16,077 nucleotides of DNA. Origin: Acidobacteriota bacterium (lineage in GTDB: Bacteria > Acidobacteriota > UBA6911 > JACQSX01). Of this stretch, positions 1,174 to 13,278 are shown piece after piece. Position numbers and translations under genes: made by a program. The notes under the pieces are model-generated. The model had not been told where the DNA came from. It saw only the letters and a program-made list of their open reading frames with translations, and did not search any database. The stretch's first letter is position 1; every line of letters begins with the position of its first letter. The stretch is taken from positions 1-16,077 of the forward strand of contig DASXQR010000104.1 in assembly GCA_036507075.1 (NCBI GenBank), in the 5' to 3' direction.

Positions 1174-1272
1174 CCGCGTTACCTCCACTCATTCACGAAT
1201 CACCGATGCCGATTAACACAAAGCTTTTGGATCTTGTATGGGCGATGTTCTGACATTTCGTCAGCGATCGCT

Positions 1273-1971
1273 CTAAGGGCGAAAGACGGCCTTGTTCGCC
1301 AGCCTGGCCTTCTCTTGCGCCACGCGGTTTTCCTCTTCCTGCTTCTTGTGACGTTCCAGTTCTCGTCGGGGAGCCTCTTGCACATCCAGCTGAACTGCTT
1401 CAACGATGGCGGTCCGGGCCAGGGCGTCCAGCGATTTGGAAACCACCACCATGCCAAAAGTAGGCTCGTAGGAGGATCGGAACAGGTTGAATGCGTACTG
1501 GGCGTCTTCCCAATAGGCTATGACATGCTGGCTGTCGCTATAAATCTGCGACGAAAAGAGGCTGATGCTCTTTGCAGTAGCAGGCCTTGTTGCCGTTCCG
1601 TACTTTAGAGAGACGGCTTCGATCATATCCGCGTCTGTCAGCCCTTCCGTCTTATAGCGATCGTAATTGACCACTATTCGAAAGAGATGGCCGTTGTAAA
1701 AACTGAAGAGGAGGCTTCTGGCCGAATCCGATTTGAGGGCAGGGCTGGTGGCGTATAAATAAGAAGACTGCCACTCCAGTTCTTGAATCAGCGCGGGACG
1801 CTCGTGGATAGTCGTTGCTTCAGACGGTTTCATGCCTGTCTGTTTCGCTATCGATGGAAGGTCCGCTCCGAACTGAAATTGCCGGTACCCGGACAAATCT
1901 TGCCCATAAATCAATGGCGTCAAAAACACCATCGAAAGAATTGAGATTGTCAGAGTGCGAGAGCTGATCAT
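1273..1971 (-). CDS. Hypothetical secreted protein
   Basis: 232-aa ORF with GGAGG RBS, a hydrophobic signal-peptide-like N terminus ending IYG-Q, and a charged helical C terminus. Confidence 0.75.
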   Translation of the reverse strand: MISSRTLTISILSMVFLTPLIYGQDLSGYRQFQFGADLPSIAKQTGMKPSEATTIHERPALIQELEWQSSYLYATSPALKSDSARSLLFSFYNGHLFRIVVNYDRYKTEGLTDADMIEAVSLKYGTATRPATAKSISLFSSQIYSDSQHVIAYWEDAQYAFNLFRSSYEPTFGMVVVSKSLDALARTAIVEAVQLDVQEAPRRELERHKKQEEENRVAQEKARLANKAVFRP

Positions 1972-1997: not shown

Positions 1998-2327
1998 TTA
2001 CGATTGCAACGCGGCGTTTGCCTCGGCCTTCGTTGGCTTTGAGCGGCGCTTACGAGGATAATGTTGTTCTAGGTATTCTGCGATATCCTCGTTCCCGATA
2101 CGCAAGCAGGCCGGGGCGCGCAATGTCTGCGTTTCTCCATCGAGCTCCCGCTTGAGTCGTCCCCAACAGAGGCCCGGACCGTCCTGGAATTTTAAGGAGG
2201 ATGACCGAAATGCTTCGAATTGAACTTCGAGCATGAATTCGCGCGTCTCCTCGGCGGCCTGGACCACATGAAAATTATAGATACGCGAATCGGCCGCAAC
2301 ATTAAAGCCAACATACTGGATCTGCAT
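1998..2327 (-). CDS. Small hypothetical protein
   Basis: ORF MQIQYVGF... with AAGGA RBS before the ATG at 2327. Co-directional with, and 26 bp from, the next gene. Confidence 0.7.
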   Translation of the reverse strand: MQIQYVGFNVAADSRIYNFHVVQAAEETREFMLEVQFEAFRSSSLKFQDGPGLCWGRLKRELDGETQTLRAPACLRIGNEDIAEYLEQHYPRKRRSKPTKAEANAALQS

Positions 2328-2337
2328 AGTCGATTCC

Positions 2338-2355
2338 TTAATTGATCCCAATTAA
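2338..2355. promoter_or_regulatory. Putative operator TTAAT-N8-ATTAA
   Basis: TTAAT tgatccca ATTAA directly upstream of the RBS of 2327..1998. Confidence 0.6.
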
Positions 2356-2359
2356 TCCC

Positions 2360-2530
2360 AAGAATTTTTGCACCACAAAGGCACAAAGAACACAAAGTCA
2401 GATGAGGGGCAGTAAGAGTCCGGTCAGGTCTCAAAGTCAAAATGCGGCAACGTGTTATGGGACCTGATCGGACTTTACCTGCCCCTCGTCCCCGCTTTGT
2501 GCCCTTTGTGTCTTTGTGGTGCAAACTCCT
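2360..2530. repeat. ~165-bp long imperfect palindromic element (MITE/REPIN-like), copy 1
   Basis: Arms TTTGCACCACAAAGGCACAAAG... and ...CTTTGTGTCTTTGTGGTGCAAA (2367-2525). Homologous copy at 13113-13278. Confidence 0.9.
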
Positions 2531-2567
2531 GTTTCGTCAGAGTTTGCAACTGCCGAACGAGTCACAA

Positions 2568-2587
2568 GGGGCGGACCGGGCCGCCCC
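2568..2587 (-). terminator. GC-rich hairpin after the ABM-like gene
   Basis: GGGGCGG-accggg-CCGCCCC lies 18 bp past the stop codon. The U tract is weak. Confidence 0.35.
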
Positions 2588-2605
2588 ATCCGAGACCTGC
2601 CGCCT

Positions 2606-2926
2606 TCAGACTGCTGCAGGAACTGCAACCTTGTGGAAGGTCGAGTTGGAAACCTCATAGGTGTGAACCTGGGGAGTCCCCTCAACCACTTTCGCGAAGG
2701 CTTTCAGAACTTCCGCATAGGTTGTGCGGCCGTAAGTATCCGCGTTGTCCTTGTTGTCCCACAAACTAATTCCAACCGCTTCCGTGCCGTTCGGGGCGAC
2801 AAAGGCGATCTCGTCCTGGAAGCCTTTCTGTTTTCGGAGCAGCGGGATGATTTCGTTCTCAAGTGTCCGGGTAAAGTCGGTAATGCTATTGGGTTTCAAA
2901 CGCATCGAGACATTTCGTGCAAACAT
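2606..2926 (-). CDS. Small dimeric alpha-beta barrel (ABM-like) protein
   Basis: 106 aa with GGAGG RBS. The pattern IIPLLRKQKGF...GISLWD...YEV is typical of antibiotic biosynthesis monooxygenase-like folds. Confidence 0.78.
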   Translation of the reverse strand: MFARNVSMRLKPNSITDFTRTLENEIIPLLRKQKGFQDEIAFVAPNGTEAVGISLWDNKDNADTYGRTTYAEVLKAFAKVVEGTPQVHTYEVSNSTFHKVAVPAAV

Positions 2927-2969
2927 ATGGCAACCTCCATGGGTTGTCTTAAGCCTGGCGTGATTTCAG

Positions 2970-3114
2970 ATAACCTGACTTAGTTCAGGTAATCCGAATA
3001 AACACCTTAATTGAGGAAATAACTTTACTAGGTTAAGTTACTTTACTTAAAATGTCAATGGTACATTCTGAAAACGTCTTTGATTTAGGACTGCAATTAA
3101 TCAATATAGGTTAA
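2970..3114. promoter_or_regulatory. Divergent control region with three TTAAC-N8-GTTAA-like boxes and a leftward sigma70 promoter
   Basis: Boxes at 2970-2987, 3019-3036 and 3097-3114. On the minus strand, TTGACA (3058-3053)-N17-TAACCT (3035-3030). Confidence 0.75.
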
Positions 3115-3133
3115 CAGTAAAGGGATTGCGGAA

Positions 3134-3991
3134 ATGGATATCGCCCTTGTGATCAGGCATCGGCTGGAAGAATTGGGTCTTGAGCAGAAGAATCTGGCAA
3201 GCGCCGCACAGGTGACCGAGTCGTACATCTCACAGTTGCTGACACGGAAGAAGTCGCCTCCGGCACCTAATCGGACTGACATTTATGACAAGATGAGCGA
3301 ATTCTTGAGGCTGCCGAACGGTGAGCTTTCAAAGTTGGCCACACTCCAGCGCCAGGAAGAATTAAAGAGGAAGCTGGCGGACCCTCCCGCGCCCTTGTTC
3401 AAAGAGGTGCGAGATTTGGTGCTCAGTAAATGCAAACCCGACAAAAAACAACTGGTGCGGGGGATTTTTGAAAAGCAGCCCTTCGGTGAGCTGGAGCGCC
3501 TGGTCACACAGAAGCTTTTGGACGTAGTCAAGAGGGTAGCGAAAGAAGAATTGGACAACGAAAACTGGGTTCACCTGGTGGCTCGACTCGGCGGGCGAAG
3601 CTACGAACAAATGCGCGTTATCATCCTCGAGTTCCTCGACACGGATGTTTTTCATGTGTCGGTTGAAAACTGCGTATCTTTCCTGGACCCTCTGATTGAA
3701 TCCTGGGACATCGATCTTGCGACTTTTAGCATGGAAGTTGTCCTGAACCGAAGAGTAGCGCCTGGAGAGCCAAAGAAATTTGAGTTTGTCGAAAAGGAAA
3801 TCGAACCGGCTTTCCAAGAAGAACCAGGGCTCAAAGAATTCCTCCGGGATGTATCTCTCAGTGGTGACGTCACGCAGGAAGAAATTGAATTTCTCAAAAA
3901 TCTGAGATTCAAGAGAAAACGACCTACGGCTCTTTATTATTACCGCGAGCTGCAAAACTTCAGAGACCCCCTCCACTTTCGCAATTCATAA
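3134..3991 (+). CDS. XRE/Cro-C1 HTH transcriptional regulator with DdrO-like C-terminal domain
   Basis: N-terminal HTH (IRHRLEELGLEQKNLASAAQVTESYISQLL). C-terminal PGLKEFLRD..VTQEEIEFLKNLRFKRKRP resembles the DdrO dimerisation domain. Confidence 0.85.
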   Translation: MDIALVIRHRLEELGLEQKNLASAAQVTESYISQLLTRKKSPPAPNRTDIYDKMSEFLRLPNGELSKLATLQRQEELKRKLADPPAPLFKEVRDLVLSKCKPDKKQLVRGIFEKQPFGELERLVTQKLLDVVKRVAKEELDNENWVHLVARLGGRSYEQMRVIILEFLDTDVFHVSVENCVSFLDPLIESWDIDLATFSMEVVLNRRVAPGEPKKFEFVEKEIEPAFQEEPGLKEFLRDVSLSGDVTQEEIEFLKNLRFKRKRPTALYYYRELQNFRDPLHFRNS

Positions 3992-4047
3992 GGGAGGCTG
4001 CGCCGCATATCCGAATACAAAAAAGCATCCAAGATGGACGCGAGGTA

Positions 4048-4119
4048 TTAACCGACTTTAATTAACAGCAATCTCCGATCTATGTTTACAGCGATACTTA
4101 ATTAACGTATTATAGTTAA
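4048..4119 (+). promoter_or_regulatory. groESL sigma70-type promoter with two palindromic boxes
   Basis: TTTACA (4085-4090)-N17-TATTAT (4108-4113). Boxes TTAAC-N8-ATTAA at 4048-4065 and TTAAC-N8-GTTAA at 4102-4119. Confidence 0.75.
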
Positions 4120-4212
4120 GAAGTTCGGGAAAAAAGTTGTTTTGCGGTTTTCACGGGATCACGCCCGTGCGGCCGGAATCTACTAAATCTAACAAAGTAA
4201 AGGAGTTATATT

Positions 4213-4536
4213 ATGAGCAGTATTAAACCCTTACATGACCGAGTTTTGGTTAAGCGTATTGATTCCGACAAAGAAGAGATCAAAGGAGGAATCGTTATCC
4301 CCGATACCGCCAAGGAAAAACCACAGGAAGGGGAGGTCATTGCCGTAGGAAATGGCAAGATCCTGGACAACGGAACGAAATTGAACCTGGAAGTAAAAGT
4401 CGGCGACCGCATTCTGTTTGGCAAGTATGCGGGCACCGAAGTCAAGATTGATGACAGGGAATTCCTGATCATGCGCGAAGAGGAGATCCTGGGAATTATC
4501 AGCGCCGGCACAAAAAGCGAGAGCGCTGCCGCCTAG
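4213..4536 (+). CDS. groES: Co-chaperonin GroES
   Basis: [33 protein letters not shown] and KYAGTEVK motifs. AAGGAG RBS. Confidence 0.99.
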
Positions 4537-4603
4537 GCGCCCGGGAGACCGGCCGCACAACAGGTGCACTAAGCCTGTCATTGAATACCTTAGAGCTGTT
4601 TAG

Positions 4604-6259
<1,656 letters not shown>

Positions 6260-6288
6260 AGCGCCCGGTGTAAAGAATCACCCGCCGC

Positions 6289-6376
6289 TCACCGCCGAGG
6301 CGCCGAGATCGCCGAGTCTCGCAGAGTCTGCACCAAACCTCTGCGAATGTCAGCGTGCTCTGCGCCTCGGCGGTGA
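6289..6376. repeat. Palindromic element with 8/9-nt internal repeats
   Basis: TCACCGCCGAGGCGCCGAG...CTCTGCGCCTCGGCGGTGA inverted arms just after groEL. Confidence 0.8.
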
Positions 6377-6404
6377 ATACAAACTGACCGTATTCGCAGA
6401 ACGA

Positions 6405-6710
6405 ATGAAAAAGTGTCCCTATTGCTTGGAAAAAATTCAAGATGCGGCACGCGTGTGCAAACAATGCGGAGGCCTGTTACATCAGCAACAAAGCAATGTA
6501 TTTCGATCCGCGCTTTCAAATCTTTGCATTAACAAGAAGGTTCAGACTTTGGGAATCCTGCTCACAATAATTGGCACTGTGCTGATGTGCGTGCAGCTCG
6601 AAGCTGGAACTCCACCGGGTCGAGTCGGCTACGCTGGAATGGTGATCATGCTCCTTGGAATTGTGATGTGGGGTTTCGGCAAGTTCAACCGGTGGGCTAA
6701 CGCAAGATGA
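6405..6710 (+). CDS. Zinc-ribbon membrane protein
   Basis: N-terminal CPYC-x10-CKQC followed by two hydrophobic helices. Confidence 0.75.
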   Translation: MKKCPYCLEKIQDAARVCKQCGGLLHQQQSNVFRSALSNLCINKKVQTLGILLTIIGTVLMCVQLEAGTPPGRVGYAGMVIMLLGIVMWGFGKFNRWANAR

Positions 6711-7081
6711 GAAAGGCGAAATCCGAGGAATGTTCCAATAGCATGGCCAAGACTCGAACAGATGAGATGAGAAATCAGTGGATGGCGGCAATTCTGGAGG
6801 CATTGCGAGAGTTTCATCAGGTGGAACGTGATGTATTCGTTCTGAACCGCTATCGATCCCTCAGCCTGAATGAAATCGGGGCAAGGCTCTCGATTTCGGT
6901 CGCACACGCAGAAAGCCTGTTGTCTAAAGCAAGCGAGAAGTTGATGTCAAAGCTGAATTCGACGGTGCAGCGTACGGAACCGCAGGCGTTATTCGGTCTT
7001 CTCCGGCGGATTTTAGTCAGGTACGGTTTTTTTGCCGACCAGACCAGCAACAGATTCATTTTCTGGAAACCGGATGCTTAA
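6707..7081 (+). CDS. Stand-alone sigma70 region 4 (ECF-type) HTH protein
   Basis: ALREF..VERDVFVL.RYRSLSLNEIGARLSIS....ESLLSKASEKL matches the sigma 4.2 pattern. ATGA overlap with the upstream gene. Confidence 0.62.
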   Translation: MRKAKSEECSNSMAKTRTDEMRNQWMAAILEALREFHQVERDVFVLNRYRSLSLNEIGARLSISVAHAESLLSKASEKLMSKLNSTVQRTEPQALFGLLRRILVRYGFFADQTSNRFIFWKPDA

Positions 7082-7837
7082 TTCTTTGGCCAGTGCAGAT
7101 GCCTCGGCGAAAGATTTCTCCTGCTTGAGTATGTCCAGCAGGCTGAATTTCGCTTCAATCCTGTCAAAGAAATCGCACTGAACACACGCTGCCGCCTTTC
7201 GGAACTGTTTGAGCGCCGTTTTCTTGTTTCCGCCCCCCAAAACTGCTCGCACCAAAAAATTGCGGCCGGCAACGATATAGTTGATCCATGCCGAGGCGGT
7301 AAGCGCACGGACATTGTCAGGGTTGCGTGCGAGTACTTTCGCTAACAATTTTCTCGCCTCTTTATACTCTCGCCACCCTTCCCATTTGTCCAGAATCTGC
7401 AGGTTGAGCCAGAGCTTGTTGAGAGCTATTTTCGCGAGCAGGACCGTGGCTCGTTCATCATCGGGTCTGTTTACCAGTATCTGCCGTGCCAGCCGAGTCC
7501 CTTCGGCGGCATCGCTTTCAAATTGCTTTAGTAGTTCCGGACACACCCGGCACGCTGTCAGGATGTCTTTTGTTTTTTTGACGTTCCCTTCCTGCCGAGC
7601 TCCTTCAATTCCTGTGACATGCTTCAAGCGGAACAAGATAATAGTTGTCCTAAGCTCGTAACTTTCAGGATCAATGGGGTCAATGGTCCGTGCCTGCATC
7701 ACCAGTCGTTCCGCCTCCGCGTACTTGCCTGCATAAAAGCTTTCTTTCGCTTCCTTGATTTTCTCCTCGTACGTGGTTTGGTTGGCGAACGTGAACGTTA
7801 TCAGCAACGCTGCGACAAGGTTCATCTCCGTCTCCAT
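7013..7837 (-). CDS. Secreted TPR-like helical-repeat protein (start 7837 or 7825)
   Basis: Signal-peptide-like N terminus and repeated helix pairs ending IDP, RPDD, NPDN and FPEN. Confidence 0.78.
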   Translation of the reverse strand: METEMNLVAALLITFTFANQTTYEEKIKEAKESFYAGKYAEAERLVMQARTIDPIDPESYELRTTIILFRLKHVTGIEGARQEGNVKKTKDILTACRVCPELLKQFESDAAEGTRLARQILVNRPDDERATVLLAKIALNKLWLNLQILDKWEGWREYKEARKLLAKVLARNPDNVRALTASAWINYIVAGRNFLVRAVLGGGNKKTALKQFRKAAACVQCDFFDRIEAKFSLLDILKQEKSFAEASALAKELSIRFPENESVAGLVGKKTVPD

Positions 7838-7944
7838 CAAAAAGCATCTCCCCCGATTTTAACCCAGCAGACCAGATTTTAGTCGGGAGTTCCGGAGTAG
7901 AGAGAGAATTCCAAACACATCATAGAGAAACATTTGCATGATGC

Positions 7945-7975
7945 CCTTGGCGTTCTTTGTGTTCTTGGCGGTTCA
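7945..7975. repeat. Solo arm of the 8/9-nt palindromic element family
   Basis: CCTTGGCGTT CTTTGTGTT CTTGGCGGTT. No partner arm is visible. Confidence 0.55.
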
Positions 7976-8032
7976 ATTTTTTCATGCGTCCTGAACAAGG
8001 CGAAGGGCCGCAAGCCCCAGGCCTCCATTCTG

Positions 8033-8082
8033 GACCTGCGATTTGCGACCTTCGACTTACTGACCTTCGATCTGCGACTTAG
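8033..8082. repeat. Degenerate heptamer tandem repeat (7 units)
   Basis: gacctgc gatttgc gaccttc gacttac (t) gaccttc gatctgc gacttag. Confidence 0.75.
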
Positions 8083-8083
8083 A

Positions 8084-8968
8084 TCACCGGCGTAGGTAGA
8101 GCTCACGCTGCATGGTGAACTCCAGCACCGTCTCGGCAGGAATCTTGATCTTTTCGCCCTTGGTAAGGATCTGGTAGCCGGCTCCACCGGCGCCGCCAAC
8201 CACTGTCCCTATCGCCGCGCCCTTGCCGCCTCCGGCAATGGCTCCGATGATGGCGCCGAGCGCCGCTCCTCCGCCAACAACGATCGCTGTCTTCTTACCC
8301 TGACTGTCACCCCGTTGTGTAGCTTGAGAAGTGGTCACCGCGTAGGACCGGCCCTGGCTCGTCAATTCCACCAAATCGATGATCAGTTGGGAGCGTCCTT
8401 CGAATTTACCTGCCTGGTCCACCTGGGCGATGCGAAGTTTTACGGGAGCGCCTCTTTCGGCGAGCAATTCATTGTTGGCAATGATGTCGCTCTCCAAGGT
8501 TCCGCTGAACGCGTCGCCGACATGGGAGACATCAGAATCGATGACCTCACTGGTGCGTACACGCAGCACCGTCCCCGATGGAATTACGTACTGGTCCCGC
8601 ATGGCGGCACGCGGATAAGCGGACGACTGCGGATTGGTGGAGTACTCGCCCACGTGCGTACGCGAATGCGTTCCGCTAGTGTCGGTGTGGGTTCCGGAGT
8701 GTTTCCCATACTGAGTGGAGGACGAAGTCGGCCCAGTCGTCGTGGTTGCCATGTTATCCACAAAAGAAACATCCCGAACGTCGGCAAGGCGGAAGGTCTT
8801 AGCTACCCCTTCCGTTCTGAAACGTATGGTACTGGAGGTTCCGCCCAGGAAGGTCCCGTTGAATACACGCCCGTCCCTCAGCGTCAAAGTGCCTGCCTGC
8901 GCCCATGAAAACGTCAGAGACGCAAGTACAATGGACAAAGCAATCAGAAATGGCTTATTTCGGCTCAT
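8084..8968 (-). CDS. Secreted/envelope protein with glycine-zipper C-terminal region
   Basis: Signal peptide (SWA-Q), a Thr/Ser/His-rich linker, [10 protein letters not shown]...IPAETVLEF beta domain and [23 protein letters not shown] zipper. AAAGGAG RBS. Confidence 0.85.
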
Positions 8969-9106
8969 AAGACTCCTTTCAGGGTCTTGTTTCGACTCAG
9001 ATGCGTAAACTAAACTTTCTGGGAGAAATTCCCGTCGCTTCCCGCGAGGAGTCAGAGAGCAAGAAAGCGTTCTTGGTACAACGATTTGTCTAATAGTTGA
9101 CGATTG

Positions 9107-9149
9107 ATTGTCTCACTCGCATCGTAAGTGGTCAGTTCAAAAATGGACA
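9107..9149 (-). promoter_or_regulatory. Putative class II Crp-family promoter for 8968..8084
   Basis: Minus-strand TGTCCATTTTTGAACT-GAC (9149-9134) and TGn-GACAAT extended -10 (9112-9107). Confidence 0.55.
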
Positions 9150-9284
9150 TAGCCAAAAAAAAAACGCGCTTTTCTCAGGCAAGTTATATAGCTTTTCCCG
9201 AGCCCAACCTCGCCATTGACGGCGGCAGCGAATGTGCAATCAAACCACCAAGATGTCCTTAATTGAACAGACGCCCGTCTTTAC

Positions 9285-9347
9285 TTTACCTATAATGGTT
9301 AAGTTACTAGGGGAGCTCCGAAGGTCTAATAAACTAGATTTTGTTAA
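9285..9347 (+). promoter_or_regulatory. PBP promoter region with two palindromic boxes
   Basis: TTTAC ctataatg GTTAA (9285-9302) encloses a perfect TATAAT. TAAAC tagatttt GTTAA at 9330-9347. Confidence 0.65.
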
Positions 9348-9391: not shown

Positions 9392-11659
9392 ATGTTTGGA
9401 CCCAGAGTTTGCGAGCGTCCGAAGCCCGGGAAGGAACAAGCAAAAGAATGGATGGCGACACTCCAAGGGCGAATCGCCTATTACCACCTCAAAACAAAAC
9501 AATGGTCGGTGCAACGGCTCTGTCGGTTGCGGGAGTTGCTGAAGCAGCACCCCTCTCTTCGCTACTCTTTATTTGCATGCGTGGGATTGCTGGCGTTTTG
9601 TCTGGCTGCCGGAACCTTTGTCCTCACCCAATCTGCGGCGGCAGCAGGAAAGCGGGACATTCAGTCGGTTTCCCGCATGGAAGAGAGCACGAACATTTTC
9701 GATCGGAACGGAAAACTCATTTATCAGTTTCACCAGAAACAGCGGACCGTGGTGCCCTTATCCCAAATCTCCAAAGAAATGCGGGACGCCATCCTTGCGG
9801 TGGAAGATCACAATTTCTATCGGCACTCGGGTTATGAAGGCAGTGCTATCGTTCGCGCCGCCTTTGCCAACCTGGTTTCTGGAAGGGTCACCCAGGGAGG
9901 CAGCACCCTTACGCAGCAACTCGCAAAGAATGTATTTTTGAATTCCGAGCGGTCTTACAGAAGAAAAATCCAGGAATTTTGGCTGGCGCGCAGAATTGAG
10001 CGCAACTACTCCAAAGACCAGATCCTTGAGATGTATGCCAATCGCATTTATTTCGGCTCCGGATACTACGGCGTGGAGGCGGCAGCGCAGGGCTATTTTG
10101 GAAAATCCGCGGCACAGTTGAGTCTGGAAGAAGCCGCCACGCTTGCCGGAATTGCCAAGGCTCCCGGCCTATATTCTCCTCACATCAGTCCTTCTTCGGC
10201 CGGGAAACGTCGCGATTTGGTGCTGAGCGCGATGGCCAGGTGCGGTTTTATCAGCGCCCGGCGCGCCGCGGCGGCAAAACAGCAGCCGCTTGTGGTCAAG
10301 GCTCGGACCGATGACTCCGAAGGCGTCGATTACGCCCTCGACTACGTGAAGGACCAACTGCAAGCGATGTTCGGATACAAAAAGATTTTCAACGGCGGCT
10401 TGCGTGTTTATACCAGTATTGATTCCGCTATGCAGAAAAGCGCTGAAACGGCCGTAGAGCATCATCTGGCTGGAATCGAGCATCAGCGGAGCTTCGCCGC
10501 CGATACTCGCGCGCAGTTTCTGGGGCGCCACAAAAACATCACCGGCGGTGAAGAAAGACCTGACTACCTGCAAGGCGCGCTGGTTTCCATGGATGTTCAC
10601 ACAGGCGAAATCTATGCGCTGGTGGGCGGACGCAATTTCAATGAGAGCAAGTTTAATCGCGCCGCTTACGCCAAGCGCCAGCCCGGTTCGGCCTTCAAGC
10701 CCATCGTTTATGCTGCGGCGCTGCATACGGGAATGACGCCCGCGACAATCATCGATGGCAGCCGTGAAGAGTATTGGACGGGAGATGCGGTGTATCGGCC
10801 CGCCAATGGTCATAGCAGACAGTATGGGTCTGTAACTCTTCGCGTTGCGCTAAGAAACTCGATTAACACTGTCGCAGTCCAAGTGGGGAAACTGCTTGGA
10901 CCGCAAACGATCATCCGCACCGCCCGTGATTTTGGGATGGAAGGGAACCTCCCTCCGGTGCTGTCGTTGCCCCTGGGCACCGGAGAAGTGACCCTGATGG
11001 AAATGGTCAGGGCCTATTCGGCTTTTCCGAACCAGGGGCGAGTGACTCAACCACGCATCATCCGCCGCGTAGAGACCAGAGACGGCCAGGTGCTGTACGA
11101 AGGGCACCCGGTGACACGATACGCCATCGATCCCCAGACTGCGTTCCTGATGACAACGATGCTTACCGACGCCGTGGATTACGGAACCGGAGCCGGTGTG
11201 CGCGGGGCTGGTTTTCGTCTGCCGGCGGGCGGGAAGACAGGAACGACGAATGATTTCCGCGACGCTTGGTTTATCGGCTTTACACCCGACGTGGTGACTG
11301 GCGTCTGGGTGGGTTTTGATGAGCCGCGAAAAATCATCCGCAACGGCTACGGAGCGACCCTTGCAGTTCCCATCTGGGCAGATTTCATGAAACACTGCTT
11401 CAACCGGCCTTCCGTCACGGGATTTTTGATGCCTGCTGGAATCGAGCGAGCCAGTATCTGTGCAGAGAGTGGGCTGCTGGCCACCCCGGCCTGCGACAAC
11501 GTGCATATGGAGTATTTCCCCGGCGGCAGCGTTCCTCAGTCTTCCTGCGATAAACACGGCATAACGGAGCCTTCAATCGATCCGGACACAGGCAACTCTT
11601 CGACCGACCCTAAGGCTGTGTCGATATCGATTTCACGCCTTCCCAAGTCTAGTCAATGA
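9392..11659 (+). CDS. Class A bifunctional penicillin-binding protein (PBP1A family)
   Basis: TM anchor, glycosyltransferase motifs EDHNFYRHSG, GGSTLTQQL and RKIQE, and transpeptidase motifs SAFK, SIN and KTG. AAGGAG RBS supports the ATG at 9392. Confidence 0.96.
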   Translation: MFGPRVCERPKPGKEQAKEWMATLQGRIAYYHLKTKQWSVQRLCRLRELLKQHPSLRYSLFACVGLLAFCLAAGTFVLTQSAAAAGKRDIQSVSRMEESTNIFDRNGKLIYQFHQKQRTVVPLSQISKEMRDAILAVEDHNFYRHSGYEGSAIVRAAFANLVSGRVTQGGSTLTQQLAKNVFLNSERSYRRKIQEFWLARRIERNYSKDQILEMYANRIYFGSGYYGVEAAAQGYFGKSAAQLSLEEAATLAGIAKAPGLYSPHISPSSAGKRRDLVLSAMARCGFISARRAAAAKQQPLVVKARTDDSEGVDYALDYVKDQLQAMFGYKKIFNGGLRVYTSIDSAMQKSAETAVEHHLAGIEHQRSFAADTRAQFLGRHKNITGGEERPDYLQGALVSMDVHTGEIYALVGGRNFNESKFNRAAYAKRQPGSAFKPIVYAAALHTGMTPATIIDGSREEYWTGDAVYRPANGHSRQYGSVTLRVALRNSINTVAVQVGKLLGPQTIIRTARDFGMEGNLPPVLSLPLGTGEVTLMEMVRAYSAFPNQGRVTQPRIIRRVETRDGQVLYEGHPVTRYAIDPQTAFLMTTMLTDAVDYGTGAGVRGAGFRLPAGGKTGTTNDFRDAWFIGFTPDVVTGVWVGFDEPRKIIRNGYGATLAVPIWADFMKHCFNRPSVTGFLMPAGIERASICAESGLLATPACDNVHMEYFPGGSVPQSSCDKHGITEPSIDPDTGNSSTDPKAVSISISRLPKSSQ

Positions 11660-11668
11660 AATGGAGAT

Positions 11669-12349
11669 TTAGTCACTCAGAACTACGTCGGTCAGGAGCG
11701 CTGCGCGCACGACGGTTTTGCCGTTATAGTCGATCAGGCCGAGCTTTCTAAACTTGTTCATGAAATAAGTGACACGCGGGCGGGTAGTGCCGATCATTTC
11801 CGCAAGAATCTCATGACTTACCAGGGGTATTGTGACATCAGGCGTGGCGTTCTCGTTACCCAACCGAGAGAGCTTCAAAAGCGCCCGCGCCAGCCGTTTT
11901 TCACTGTGATTGAAGAGCTGGTCACAGAGATCTTCTTCCAGGGCGATGTTGCGAGCCAGCAGCAGACTGACGAAAGTCTCGGCAAACTCGGGCCGGCTGT
12001 GTATGGCGCGCACCATGGCTGATTTGTCGAGTCGGAATATTTTAGAAGGTTCCAGCGTCTCGGCCGTGCCCATCTGTACAGTCTGGCCGACCAGGCATCC
12101 CTCACCGAAAAACTCTCGCGGCCCCAGCATAAAAAGTGTCGCTTCTTTCCCGGCCGTAGAAACCACGGAAATCTTGACCTTGCCGCTCTCGATAAAAAAC
12201 AGAGCCTCGGCTTGGTCTCCTTGTGAAAAAATTCTTTTGTGGGCGCCAAGATCGAGAGTCGTCTTTCCCTCCCTTACTTTTTTCAGGAGTTTCTCGATAT
12301 AGTGGTGCTGCTTCTTAACTTTTGGCGGTCGGAGTTCTTTAGTCGGCAC
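11669..12349 (-). CDS. Crp/Fnr family transcriptional regulator
   Basis: cNMP-binding fold (IFSQGD, SGKVKI, FFGEGCL) plus HTH (SHEILAEMIGTTRPRVTYFMNKFRKLGLI). GGAG RBS favours the GTG at 12349. Confidence 0.93.
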   Translation of the reverse strand: MPTKELRPPKVKKQHHYIEKLLKKVREGKTTLDLGAHKRIFSQGDQAEALFFIESGKVKISVVSTAGKEATLFMLGPREFFGEGCLVGQTVQMGTAETLEPSKIFRLDKSAMVRAIHSRPEFAETFVSLLLARNIALEEDLCDQLFNHSEKRLARALLKLSRLGNENATPDVTIPLVSHEILAEMIGTTRPRVTYFMNKFRKLGLIDYNGKTVVRAALLTDVVLSD

Positions 12350-12477
12350 CTTAGCGCTCCATGTCCAGCTTGGTTGGTTTCTGGTAGGGCTTAGCAATTA
12401 TCGCCCCGAAACAAGCTCGCGTCAAATATGAACACTGCAGCAAAAAAGCGCAGTGCCGAGCGAAAATTGCAGCCGGA

Positions 12478-12625: not shown

Positions 12626-12668
12626 ACCGATTTTTTCACCTGCTTAGTGTGCGACCAAAATACGAAGG

Positions 12669-12711
12669 TGTCCATAAGTGAACAGACACCCCTCTTTGAA
12701 GCTTCTAGTAT
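12669..12711 (+). promoter_or_regulatory. Putative class II Crp-family promoter for the GlsB/YeaQ gene
   Basis: TGTCCATAAGTGAACA-GAC (12669-12684) and TAGTAT -10 (12706-12711), giving a site centre of about -41.5. Confidence 0.62.
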
Positions 12712-13112: not shown

Positions 13113-13278
13113 AAGAATTTTTGCACCACGAAGGCACAAAGGGCACAAAGTCAGACGAGGGGCAGGTAGAGCCGGGTCAGGTTTCAAAGTCAAAATGTGG
13201 CAGCGTGTTAGTTGACCGGACTCTGCCTCTCCTCGTCTCGCTTTGTGCCCTTTGTGTCTTTGTGGTGGAAACCTCCTG
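13113..13278. repeat. ~165-bp palindromic element, copy 2
   Basis: Same orientation, flank (AAGAATTTTTGCACCAC) and loop (TCAAAGTCAAAATGYGGCARCGTGTTA) as 2360-2530. Lies between convergent genes. Confidence 0.9.

Follow-up and report, generated by a model that had tools for sequence, protein, structure and literature searches.

The 16,077-nucleotide stretch analyzed here (the window, which is the whole of contig C104 and 0.26% of a 6.1-Mb, 56% GC genome) carries several near copies of an 18-bp palindrome, TTAAC-N8-GTTAA, around a gene coding for a 285-residue regulator of the XRE family and upstream of groES-groEL and a PBP1A-family gene. The question raised by this locus is whether the palindrome, TTAAC(Y)-N6-(R)GTTAA with its less constant inner bases, is the operator through which the adjacent XRE protein represses its targets. 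Comparison of related loci indicated that it probably is. The palindrome precedes 73 of 80 relatives of the XRE gene and lies over promoters, and it is therefore likely to be the site of an undescribed repressor. No account of the motif or of its regulon was found in the open-access literature; subscription papers, supplements and regulon databases lay outside the scope of that search.

All eight 18-mers listed in an initial annotation of this DNA, beginning at 2338, 2970, 3019, 3097, 4048, 4102, 9285 and 9330, are present in the window. Their 5-bp arms are exact at 4102, have one mismatch at 3019, 3097, 4048, 9285 and 9330, and two at 2338 and 2970; none of the eight matches in full the consensus proposed with them, TTAACY-N6-RGTTAA. 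The sole exact copy of that consensus in the genome (G000 C13:51093) is solitary and lacks the -35 geometry described below. At up to two mismatches the window holds 12 matches against a shuffled mean of 3.3, and 12 was reached in none of 200 shuffles. A matrix derived from 138 sites of other genomes only, with the central six columns masked, detected eight sites in 2,520 intergenic bases. Shuffled AT-rich sequence, which the initial annotation had named as the control, gave a mean of 0.21; in AT-matched shuffles of the intergenic segments the maximum was three sites, and eight was reached in 0 of 1,000. Coding sequences contain no match at up to one mismatch, in agreement with what had been noted by eye, although two-mismatch matches occur at 4236 (groES) and 14485 (permease).

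The excess is confined to this region. At up to one mismatch the genome has 44 TTAAC-N8-GTTAA sites, six of them within the 16-kb contig, compared with 25-61 at other spacings; the N8 spacing shows no genome-wide enrichment, which makes the signal a local one. The genome has five pairs of sites separated by 38-82 bp, of which four are in the window and the fifth, on C232, consists of two identical sites. A genome-wide regulon in this genome is thus not supported, there being no site excess and no phased pairs outside the contig except the identical-site pair. The pairing at 45-54 bp that had been proposed does not hold throughout, as 3097 is 73-78 bp from its partner and 2338 has none. The 2338 site and a weak match at 1199 were set aside as solitary. 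One arm of the former is lost in two related loci (L002 and L003), and of 19 hypothetical-gene homologues one, the window's own, has a site beside its start.

Footprinting was carried out on the best 80 of 165 genome loci encoding a relative of the XRE protein (63-91% identity). These loci amount to 1.0 Mb and their record labels span seven phyla; the closest named records to the window gene are Acidobacteriota. In the 73 loci counted above the site is no more than 300 bp upstream of the XRE gene, and three of the other seven are truncated. Exact TTAAC-N8-GTTAA occurs 54 times in the loci, compared with 0-3 times at other spacings. Smaller peaks, at N7 in 35 loci and at N12 in 21, are located near the pair of -35 boxes and appear to come from half-sites beside them. 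Operator geometry was counted by matrix in 78 regions, with the three truncated loci left out; this count superseded a mismatch-based one in which 15 of 76 regions (more than 3 mismatches) had been dropped before counting.

The arrangement has a fixed order: operator O1, operator O2, overlapping back-to-back -35 boxes, and operator O3. O2 ends 11 nt (64 regions) or 12 nt (5 regions) from the leftward -35 box in 69 of the 78 regions. In 67 of these 69 the pattern xAxxxT stands at its six central bases, which indicates that O2 encloses the -10 box of the promoter of the ABM-like gene. The arms of the palindromes are conserved symmetrically, while the spacer of O3, an operator kept at about -34 from the XRE start, varies freely. 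O1 and O2 are 43-45 bp (36 pairs) or 52-55 bp (18 pairs) apart in all 54 pairs, and O2 and O3 are 51-53 (6), 60-64 (37) or 68-73 bp (12) apart in 55 of 57. Partner-site spacings mostly differ in steps of about 10 bp, and the classes changed at least nine times on a quick tree.

By the geometry common to the homologues, O2 of the window is the site at 3024-3041, missed by the initial annotation, and not the overlapping 3019 site that had been listed. The in-register site is 11 nt from TGTCAA, 54 bp from O1 and 73 bp from O3, and its central six bases (3030-3035, TAACCT on the minus strand) are at the -10 position of the leftward promoter. The look-alike at 3019 may also be bound; O1-O2 spacings of 46-51 bp occur in none of the 54 pairs. 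Table 1 lists the features. The genes near the finding are those for a rhodanese, two hypothetical proteins, the ABM-like protein, XRE and groES-groEL, followed by several unrelated genes and those for the PBP1A-family protein, a Crp-family regulator and a GlsB/YeaQ-type protein.

Table 1. Coordinates of the operators, promoters and genes discussed, in window positions
Feature	Position	Strand	Remarks
Weak solitary matrix match	1199-1216		Just upstream of rhodanese gene; score 10.3
Hypothetical protein, 232 aa (hyp232)	1273..1971	-	Hydrophobic N-terminus; homologue in 22/80 loci
Hypothetical protein, hyp117 family	1998..2327	-	Homologue in 18/80 loci
Doubtful solitary site	2338..2355		Adjoins REP-like repeat; score 10.3, no partner
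ABM-like gene, 106 aa	2606..2926	-	Divergent from XRE; Pfam ABM E 0.003, below cut-off
Operator O1, leader of ABM-like gene	2970..2987	.	Matrix score 12.7; counterpart in 54/69 homologous regions
Look-alike overlapping O2, offset 5 bp	3019..3036	.	Score 15.6; better arms, out of register (49 and 78 bp)
Operator O2, in register	3024..3041	.	Weak score, 8.0; spacing as in homologues
-35 box TTGACA of leftward (ABM) promoter	3053..3058	-	Sequence and module match
Operator O3	3097..3114	.	37 bp before XRE start; score 16.4
XRE-family regulator, 285 aa	3134..3991	+	HTH 1-71, middle ~83-222, C-terminal 226-281
Upstream operator of groES promoter	4048..4065	.	Score 15.1; counterpart in L002 and L010
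groES promoter	4085..4119	+	-35 TTTACA 4085-4090, 17 nt, -10 TATTAT 4108-4113
groES-groEL, second copy	4213..6259	+	Pfam; without CIRCE
Second palindrome, TGTCC-N6-GAACA	9254..9269	+	Candidate activator site; centred at ~-41.5, upstream of lost -35 position
Captured ABM-gene promoter, leader and first 12 codons	9281..9427	+	Holds operators 9285-9302 and 9330-9347
PBP1A-family gene	9392..11659	+	TIGR02074 above cut-off; lineage-specific recruit

The sites co-occur with the XRE gene. A promoter-operator module, the pattern of which was derived from the XRE loci, was found in 6 of 12 XRE-bearing genomes and in none of 289 XRE-lacking ones among 301 genomes of the phylum (5 of 11 XRE-bearing genomes without the unpublished G209). 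Among 60 relatives, the exact consensus is present in 8 of 12 XRE holders, each time directly upstream of the XRE gene, and in 2 of 48 others. The recognition helix of the protein is nearly invariant in 40 aligned members; L038, alone in having an altered helix, lacks upstream sites. Footprinting, phylum-wide co-occurrence and the constancy of the recognition helix therefore lend support to the proposal, made in the initial annotation, that the palindrome is the operator of the XRE protein. Duplicate, broken or orphan XRE-ABM cassettes were also observed, at L175 (G045), L177 (G041), L163 and L166 (both in G068), L173 (G074) and L063, and they point to frequent duplication and loss of the cassette.

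The XRE gene itself, the ABM-like gene and groESL are supported as targets because site pairs travel with these genes when they are rearranged. Homologues of the ABM-like gene are present in 62 of the 80 loci, and those of groEL and groES in 23 and 22. Other frequent neighbors in 81 regions scanned around XRE code for Hsp20 (13), RNA-binding proteins with an RNA recognition motif (RRM; 15), GlsB/YeaQ-like (11) and cold-shock-like proteins (6, a label assigned by reading the sequence). Outside the region upstream of XRE, all 11 site-pair hits (8 places) precede groES, ABM, Hsp20 or PBP1A genes; five shuffles gave no extra pair hits. Three of 23 groES genes are detached from the target operon and each has its own site pair, whereas the 20 still in the operon have neither site nor CIRCE, the latter being absent before all 23 cassette-linked groES genes. 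In the window, the groES -10 box is the center of operator 4102-4119, and the arms and both promoter boxes are kept in L002. The other groESL of the genome (G000 C52, ~4953-7100) is 90-92% identical to the window copy and is preceded by the only CIRCE of the genome, a perfect one.

The regulon had been described as local, and this is mostly correct. A search of 25 whole genomes for the module pattern gave hits mostly at an XRE gene, but remote modules precede hyp232, a gene for a probable secreted protein and one for Hsp20, the last at a distance of 157 kb. The remote hyp232 gene of G069 has its own operator pair, and sites are likewise present at the second ABM gene of G001. In the window the hyp117 and hyp232 genes are likely read from the ABM promoter on the same transcript, so that they probably belong to the regulon by read-through and not by way of the 2338 site. 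The regulon appears to grow by copying of the promoter-operator cassette.

The sites in front of the PBP1A gene are such a copy, as sequence comparison indicates. The segment 9281-9427 is 73-77% identical to the 5' regions of the ABM genes of L079, L048 and L023 (best E 1e-17), and the PBP1A protein starts with MFGPRV where ABM proteins start with MFARRV. The donor resembles the 44-bp class and not the window's own ABM leader. Operator 9285-9302 has the -10 box TATAAT in its center. G001 retains both operators, and G003, on a contig that stops short of the first, retains the second. The sites which had placed PBP1A in the regulon are real. Whether they still control the gene stands at about even odds, because they are a captured copy, found in one family only, in which the -35 box has been lost. 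That they are a functionless relic of promoter capture is just short of an even chance: they are limited to three genomes in which the whole region is 85-93% identical, and among the 80 loci no further case of a site pair in front of a PBP gene was found. Nonetheless, compared with the donor cassette both sites keep their arms and a consensus or near-consensus -10 box, and G001 keeps the arms although the DNA between the sites changed.

A different palindrome, TGTCC-N6-GAACA, stands just upstream of the lost -35 position and recurs at 12669 at the same distance to a -10 box. Its center, at about -41.5, is at the class II position of Crp/Fnr activators, and it is a candidate activator site. The extended pattern TGTYC-N6-GAACAGA-N19-TAnnnT has 15 matches, spread over 7 of 61 genomes (none in the control); 9233-9296 and 12648-12711 of the window are among them, and both window copies have TGTGC 21 bp upstream. 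The pattern is often beside Crp-family genes, and among its targets are GlsB/YeaQ-type small proteins and others called CsbD-like from a reading of their sequence. It is a candidate regulon of the Crp-family gene at 11669-12397. TGTYC-N6-GRACA alone shows no genome-wide enrichment (33 against 13-29); only the version with the spaced -10 box stands out.

The XRE gene is present in a single copy in the genome and has at least 8,000 relatives in database clusters. The structure model of the protein (pLDDT 81) has three domains. Residues 1-71 form a five-helix HTH_XRE (helix-turn-helix, HTH) fold with structure matches at Z 8-10, among them the N-terminal domains of P22 c2, 434 and DdrO (Z 8.0-8.2) and of CapH (Z 9.0). 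Pfam HTH_3 and HTH_31 match weakly, below cut-off (HTH_3 E 8e-4), and Atlas neighbors of the protein carry PF01381. The three-helix C-terminal domain matches DdrO's C-terminal domain (6ro6) over 56 of 57 residues at a root-mean-square deviation of 2.4 and a Z of 7.1, a value below the safe range of the tool and graded "possibly common"; profile searches match the same region weakly (E 0.28-1.2). The middle domain of about 140 residues folds confidently in the model and has no clear structural match. Its top five structural neighbors (window 3380-3802) are all C-terminal regions of large serine recombinases, at Z 4.5-5.5, a weak lead. Two cysteines of this domain are invariant in 40 close members. 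A homodimer prediction scored 0.14 against a mark of 0.42, which speaks neither for nor against a dimer.

We propose that each 18-bp site is read by a dimer of the XRE protein, which would use its two HTH domains and be joined through the DdrO-like C-terminal domain. Because spacings change by about one helical turn, two dimers likely cooperate on paired sites. Coverage of -10 boxes and start sites would let the protein repress the XRE gene, the ABM-like operon divergent from it and the groESL copy that lacks CIRCE. Most of the targets help in stress or in protein folding (GroESL, Hsp20, RNA-binding proteins), so that stress which damages proteins likely relieves the repression. The leading candidate route of release, though one that falls somewhat short of probable, is loss of oligomers sensed through the middle domain. 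Cleavage by an unlinked IrrE-type protease is unlikely. The loop that corresponds to that of DdrO is basic in XRE, but the residue aligned to DdrO R107 (position 260) varies, and PF06114 is weak in the window's own genome and was not found in G036, G041 and G052, three of the 11 XRE-bearing relatives that are at least 80% complete. No linked protease of the IrrE/ImmA type was found in the 81 regions. The broadest form of the model is doubtful as a whole. It would be a mobile, HrcA-independent protein-stress switch present in at least seven phyla, with XRE looping the DNA between phased operators, sensing through the middle domain, a regulon rebuilt lineage by lineage through cassette copying, and a new two-input PBP1A promoter that includes a Crp-type site.

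Several observations, besides the low Z of the C-terminal match, weigh against parts of this interpretation. The gene and its promoter are inherited as one cassette, so the co-occurrence counts are not independent, and kinship inflates them further; moreover, the matrix and the module pattern were derived from these same XRE loci. Six of the 12 XRE genomes lack the strict module, and nine of the 78 regions lack O2. The window's own O2 is weak, and its -10 box matches at 3 of 6 positions, under the scan threshold. As for cooperation between sites, the O2-O3 spacings of 37 and 47 (2 of 57) fit no class, phasing of these two operators is weak (R 0.39) if every distinct spacing enters the count a single time, and in four distant loci the sites are 132-144 bp from each other. 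As regards release, one of the two conserved cysteines is absent in distant members, and no open reading frame with a fitting HExxH pattern was found in the 81 regions. In CapH, according to a preprint, tetramers are dispensable for repression (bioRxiv 2022.04.27.489752).

Other explanations of the palindromes were considered. They could be sites of some other transcription factor, not linked to XRE, with the XRE gene merely among those it controls. Binding by XRE is read from sequence, the window includes a Crp-family gene, and one of the two non-holder genomes with the exact consensus (G045) has a decayed orphan cassette in which XRE was not found, a point that also counts against XRE being the binding protein. 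However, just 6 of 80 loci include the Crp gene, for which a separate candidate motif exists, the sites are not in excess genome-wide, and the module is absent from all 289 XRE-lacking genomes. The same motif occurs in records labeled with seven phyla, which makes another common regulator unlikely, and we consider this explanation very improbable. Slightly less probable still is that the palindromes arose as a side effect of AT-rich promoters placed back to back, or of a folded RNA leader passed on together with the cassette. The enclosure of a -10 box by O2, the overlap of O1 with a hairpin in the window leader (z -2.5) and the origin of the N7 and N12 side peaks near the -35 pair are in line with it. 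Against it, AT-matched shuffles do not reproduce the number of sites, and O3 is outside the promoter boxes, yet it keeps both arms around a free spacer. Consensus folds are weak, with two-sided changes in 2 of 7 and 0 of 6 pairs. An RNA thermometer or leader structure was rejected in view of these weak folds, the little covariation and the lack of an Rfam match; Rfam elements at gathering score numbered 0 in the window.

A further possibility is that XRE does bind the sites but works in both directions, like the lambda switch, with one promoter activated and the other repressed. The presence of three operators around divergent promoters that stand back to back, the position of O2, which ends about 5 nt before the rightward -35 box of the XRE gene, and the kinship of the fold to phage repressors would suit such a switch. 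On the other hand, every target promoter has a site on its -10 box, and O3 coincides with the predicted XRE start site or follows it closely, a location that suits repression. A two-way switch is improbable, and repression by the XRE protein is the interpretation kept here.

Comparison with known systems indicated that the XRE system would work like multi-operator XRE repressors. HrcA represses the groESL operon through the palindromic operator CIRCE, but the operator and the protein fold are different, and in this genome the second groESL carries XRE-type sites while the other copy has CIRCE. The HipB, P22 c2 and 434 repressors bind several palindromic sites of similar length around one promoter and share the HTH fold; XRE is longer, has three domains, recognizes another arm sequence and has no toxin partner or phage switch. 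CapH/CapP and ImmR/ImmA share with XRE the HTH, the divergent layout and, presumably for XRE, oligomer-dependent repression; an adjacent metallopeptidase was not found in the 81 regions, and the 60 commonest neighbor clusters of XRE include no CBASS or conjugative-element genes. The closest resemblance is to DdrO, in the folds of the HTH and C-terminal domains. [quoted passage not shown] Nonetheless, XRE departs from DdrO in size, operator and targets. DdrO has about 130 residues in two domains, and XRE has about 285, with some 140 extra residues between the domains. The DdrO operator is given as the 17-bp RDRM (radiation/desiccation response motif), against the 18-bp TTAAC-N8-GTTAA, and its regulon as 14-24 genes, against 2-4 promoters per genome. 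DdrO targets DNA repair, whereas the XRE targets are ABM-like, groESL, Hsp20 and hyp232 genes, that is, chaperones and proteins of unknown function. DdrO and IrrE belong to Deinococcus; XRE occurs outside Deinococcus, and an IrrE partner was not found.

If the operator assignment is correct, a very large unstudied family of regulators gains a testable operator, a promoter architecture and a set of targets; known sites are scarce for regulators of the soil and groundwater phyla involved. The assignment would offer an explanation of how a second groESL copy can be regulated in the absence of CIRCE and would extend the DdrO-like C-terminal fold to a setting other than DNA repair. The PBP1A gene, with its 12-codon fusion scar, provides a clear case of regulon growth by promoter capture.

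Three other features of the window were observed. The start of the contig (19-653) encodes a pair consisting of a FitA-like ribbon-helix-helix antitoxin and a PIN-domain toxin. A stand-alone sigma-70 region 4 protein of 124 aa (6707-7081) is encoded by a gene that overlaps a zinc-ribbon membrane gene. Long inverted repeats that resemble repetitive extragenic palindromic (REP) elements are located at 2367-2524 and 13121-13270, and one copy stands between the ABM-like gene and hyp117; a partial-copy query produced 510 blastn hits in the genome.

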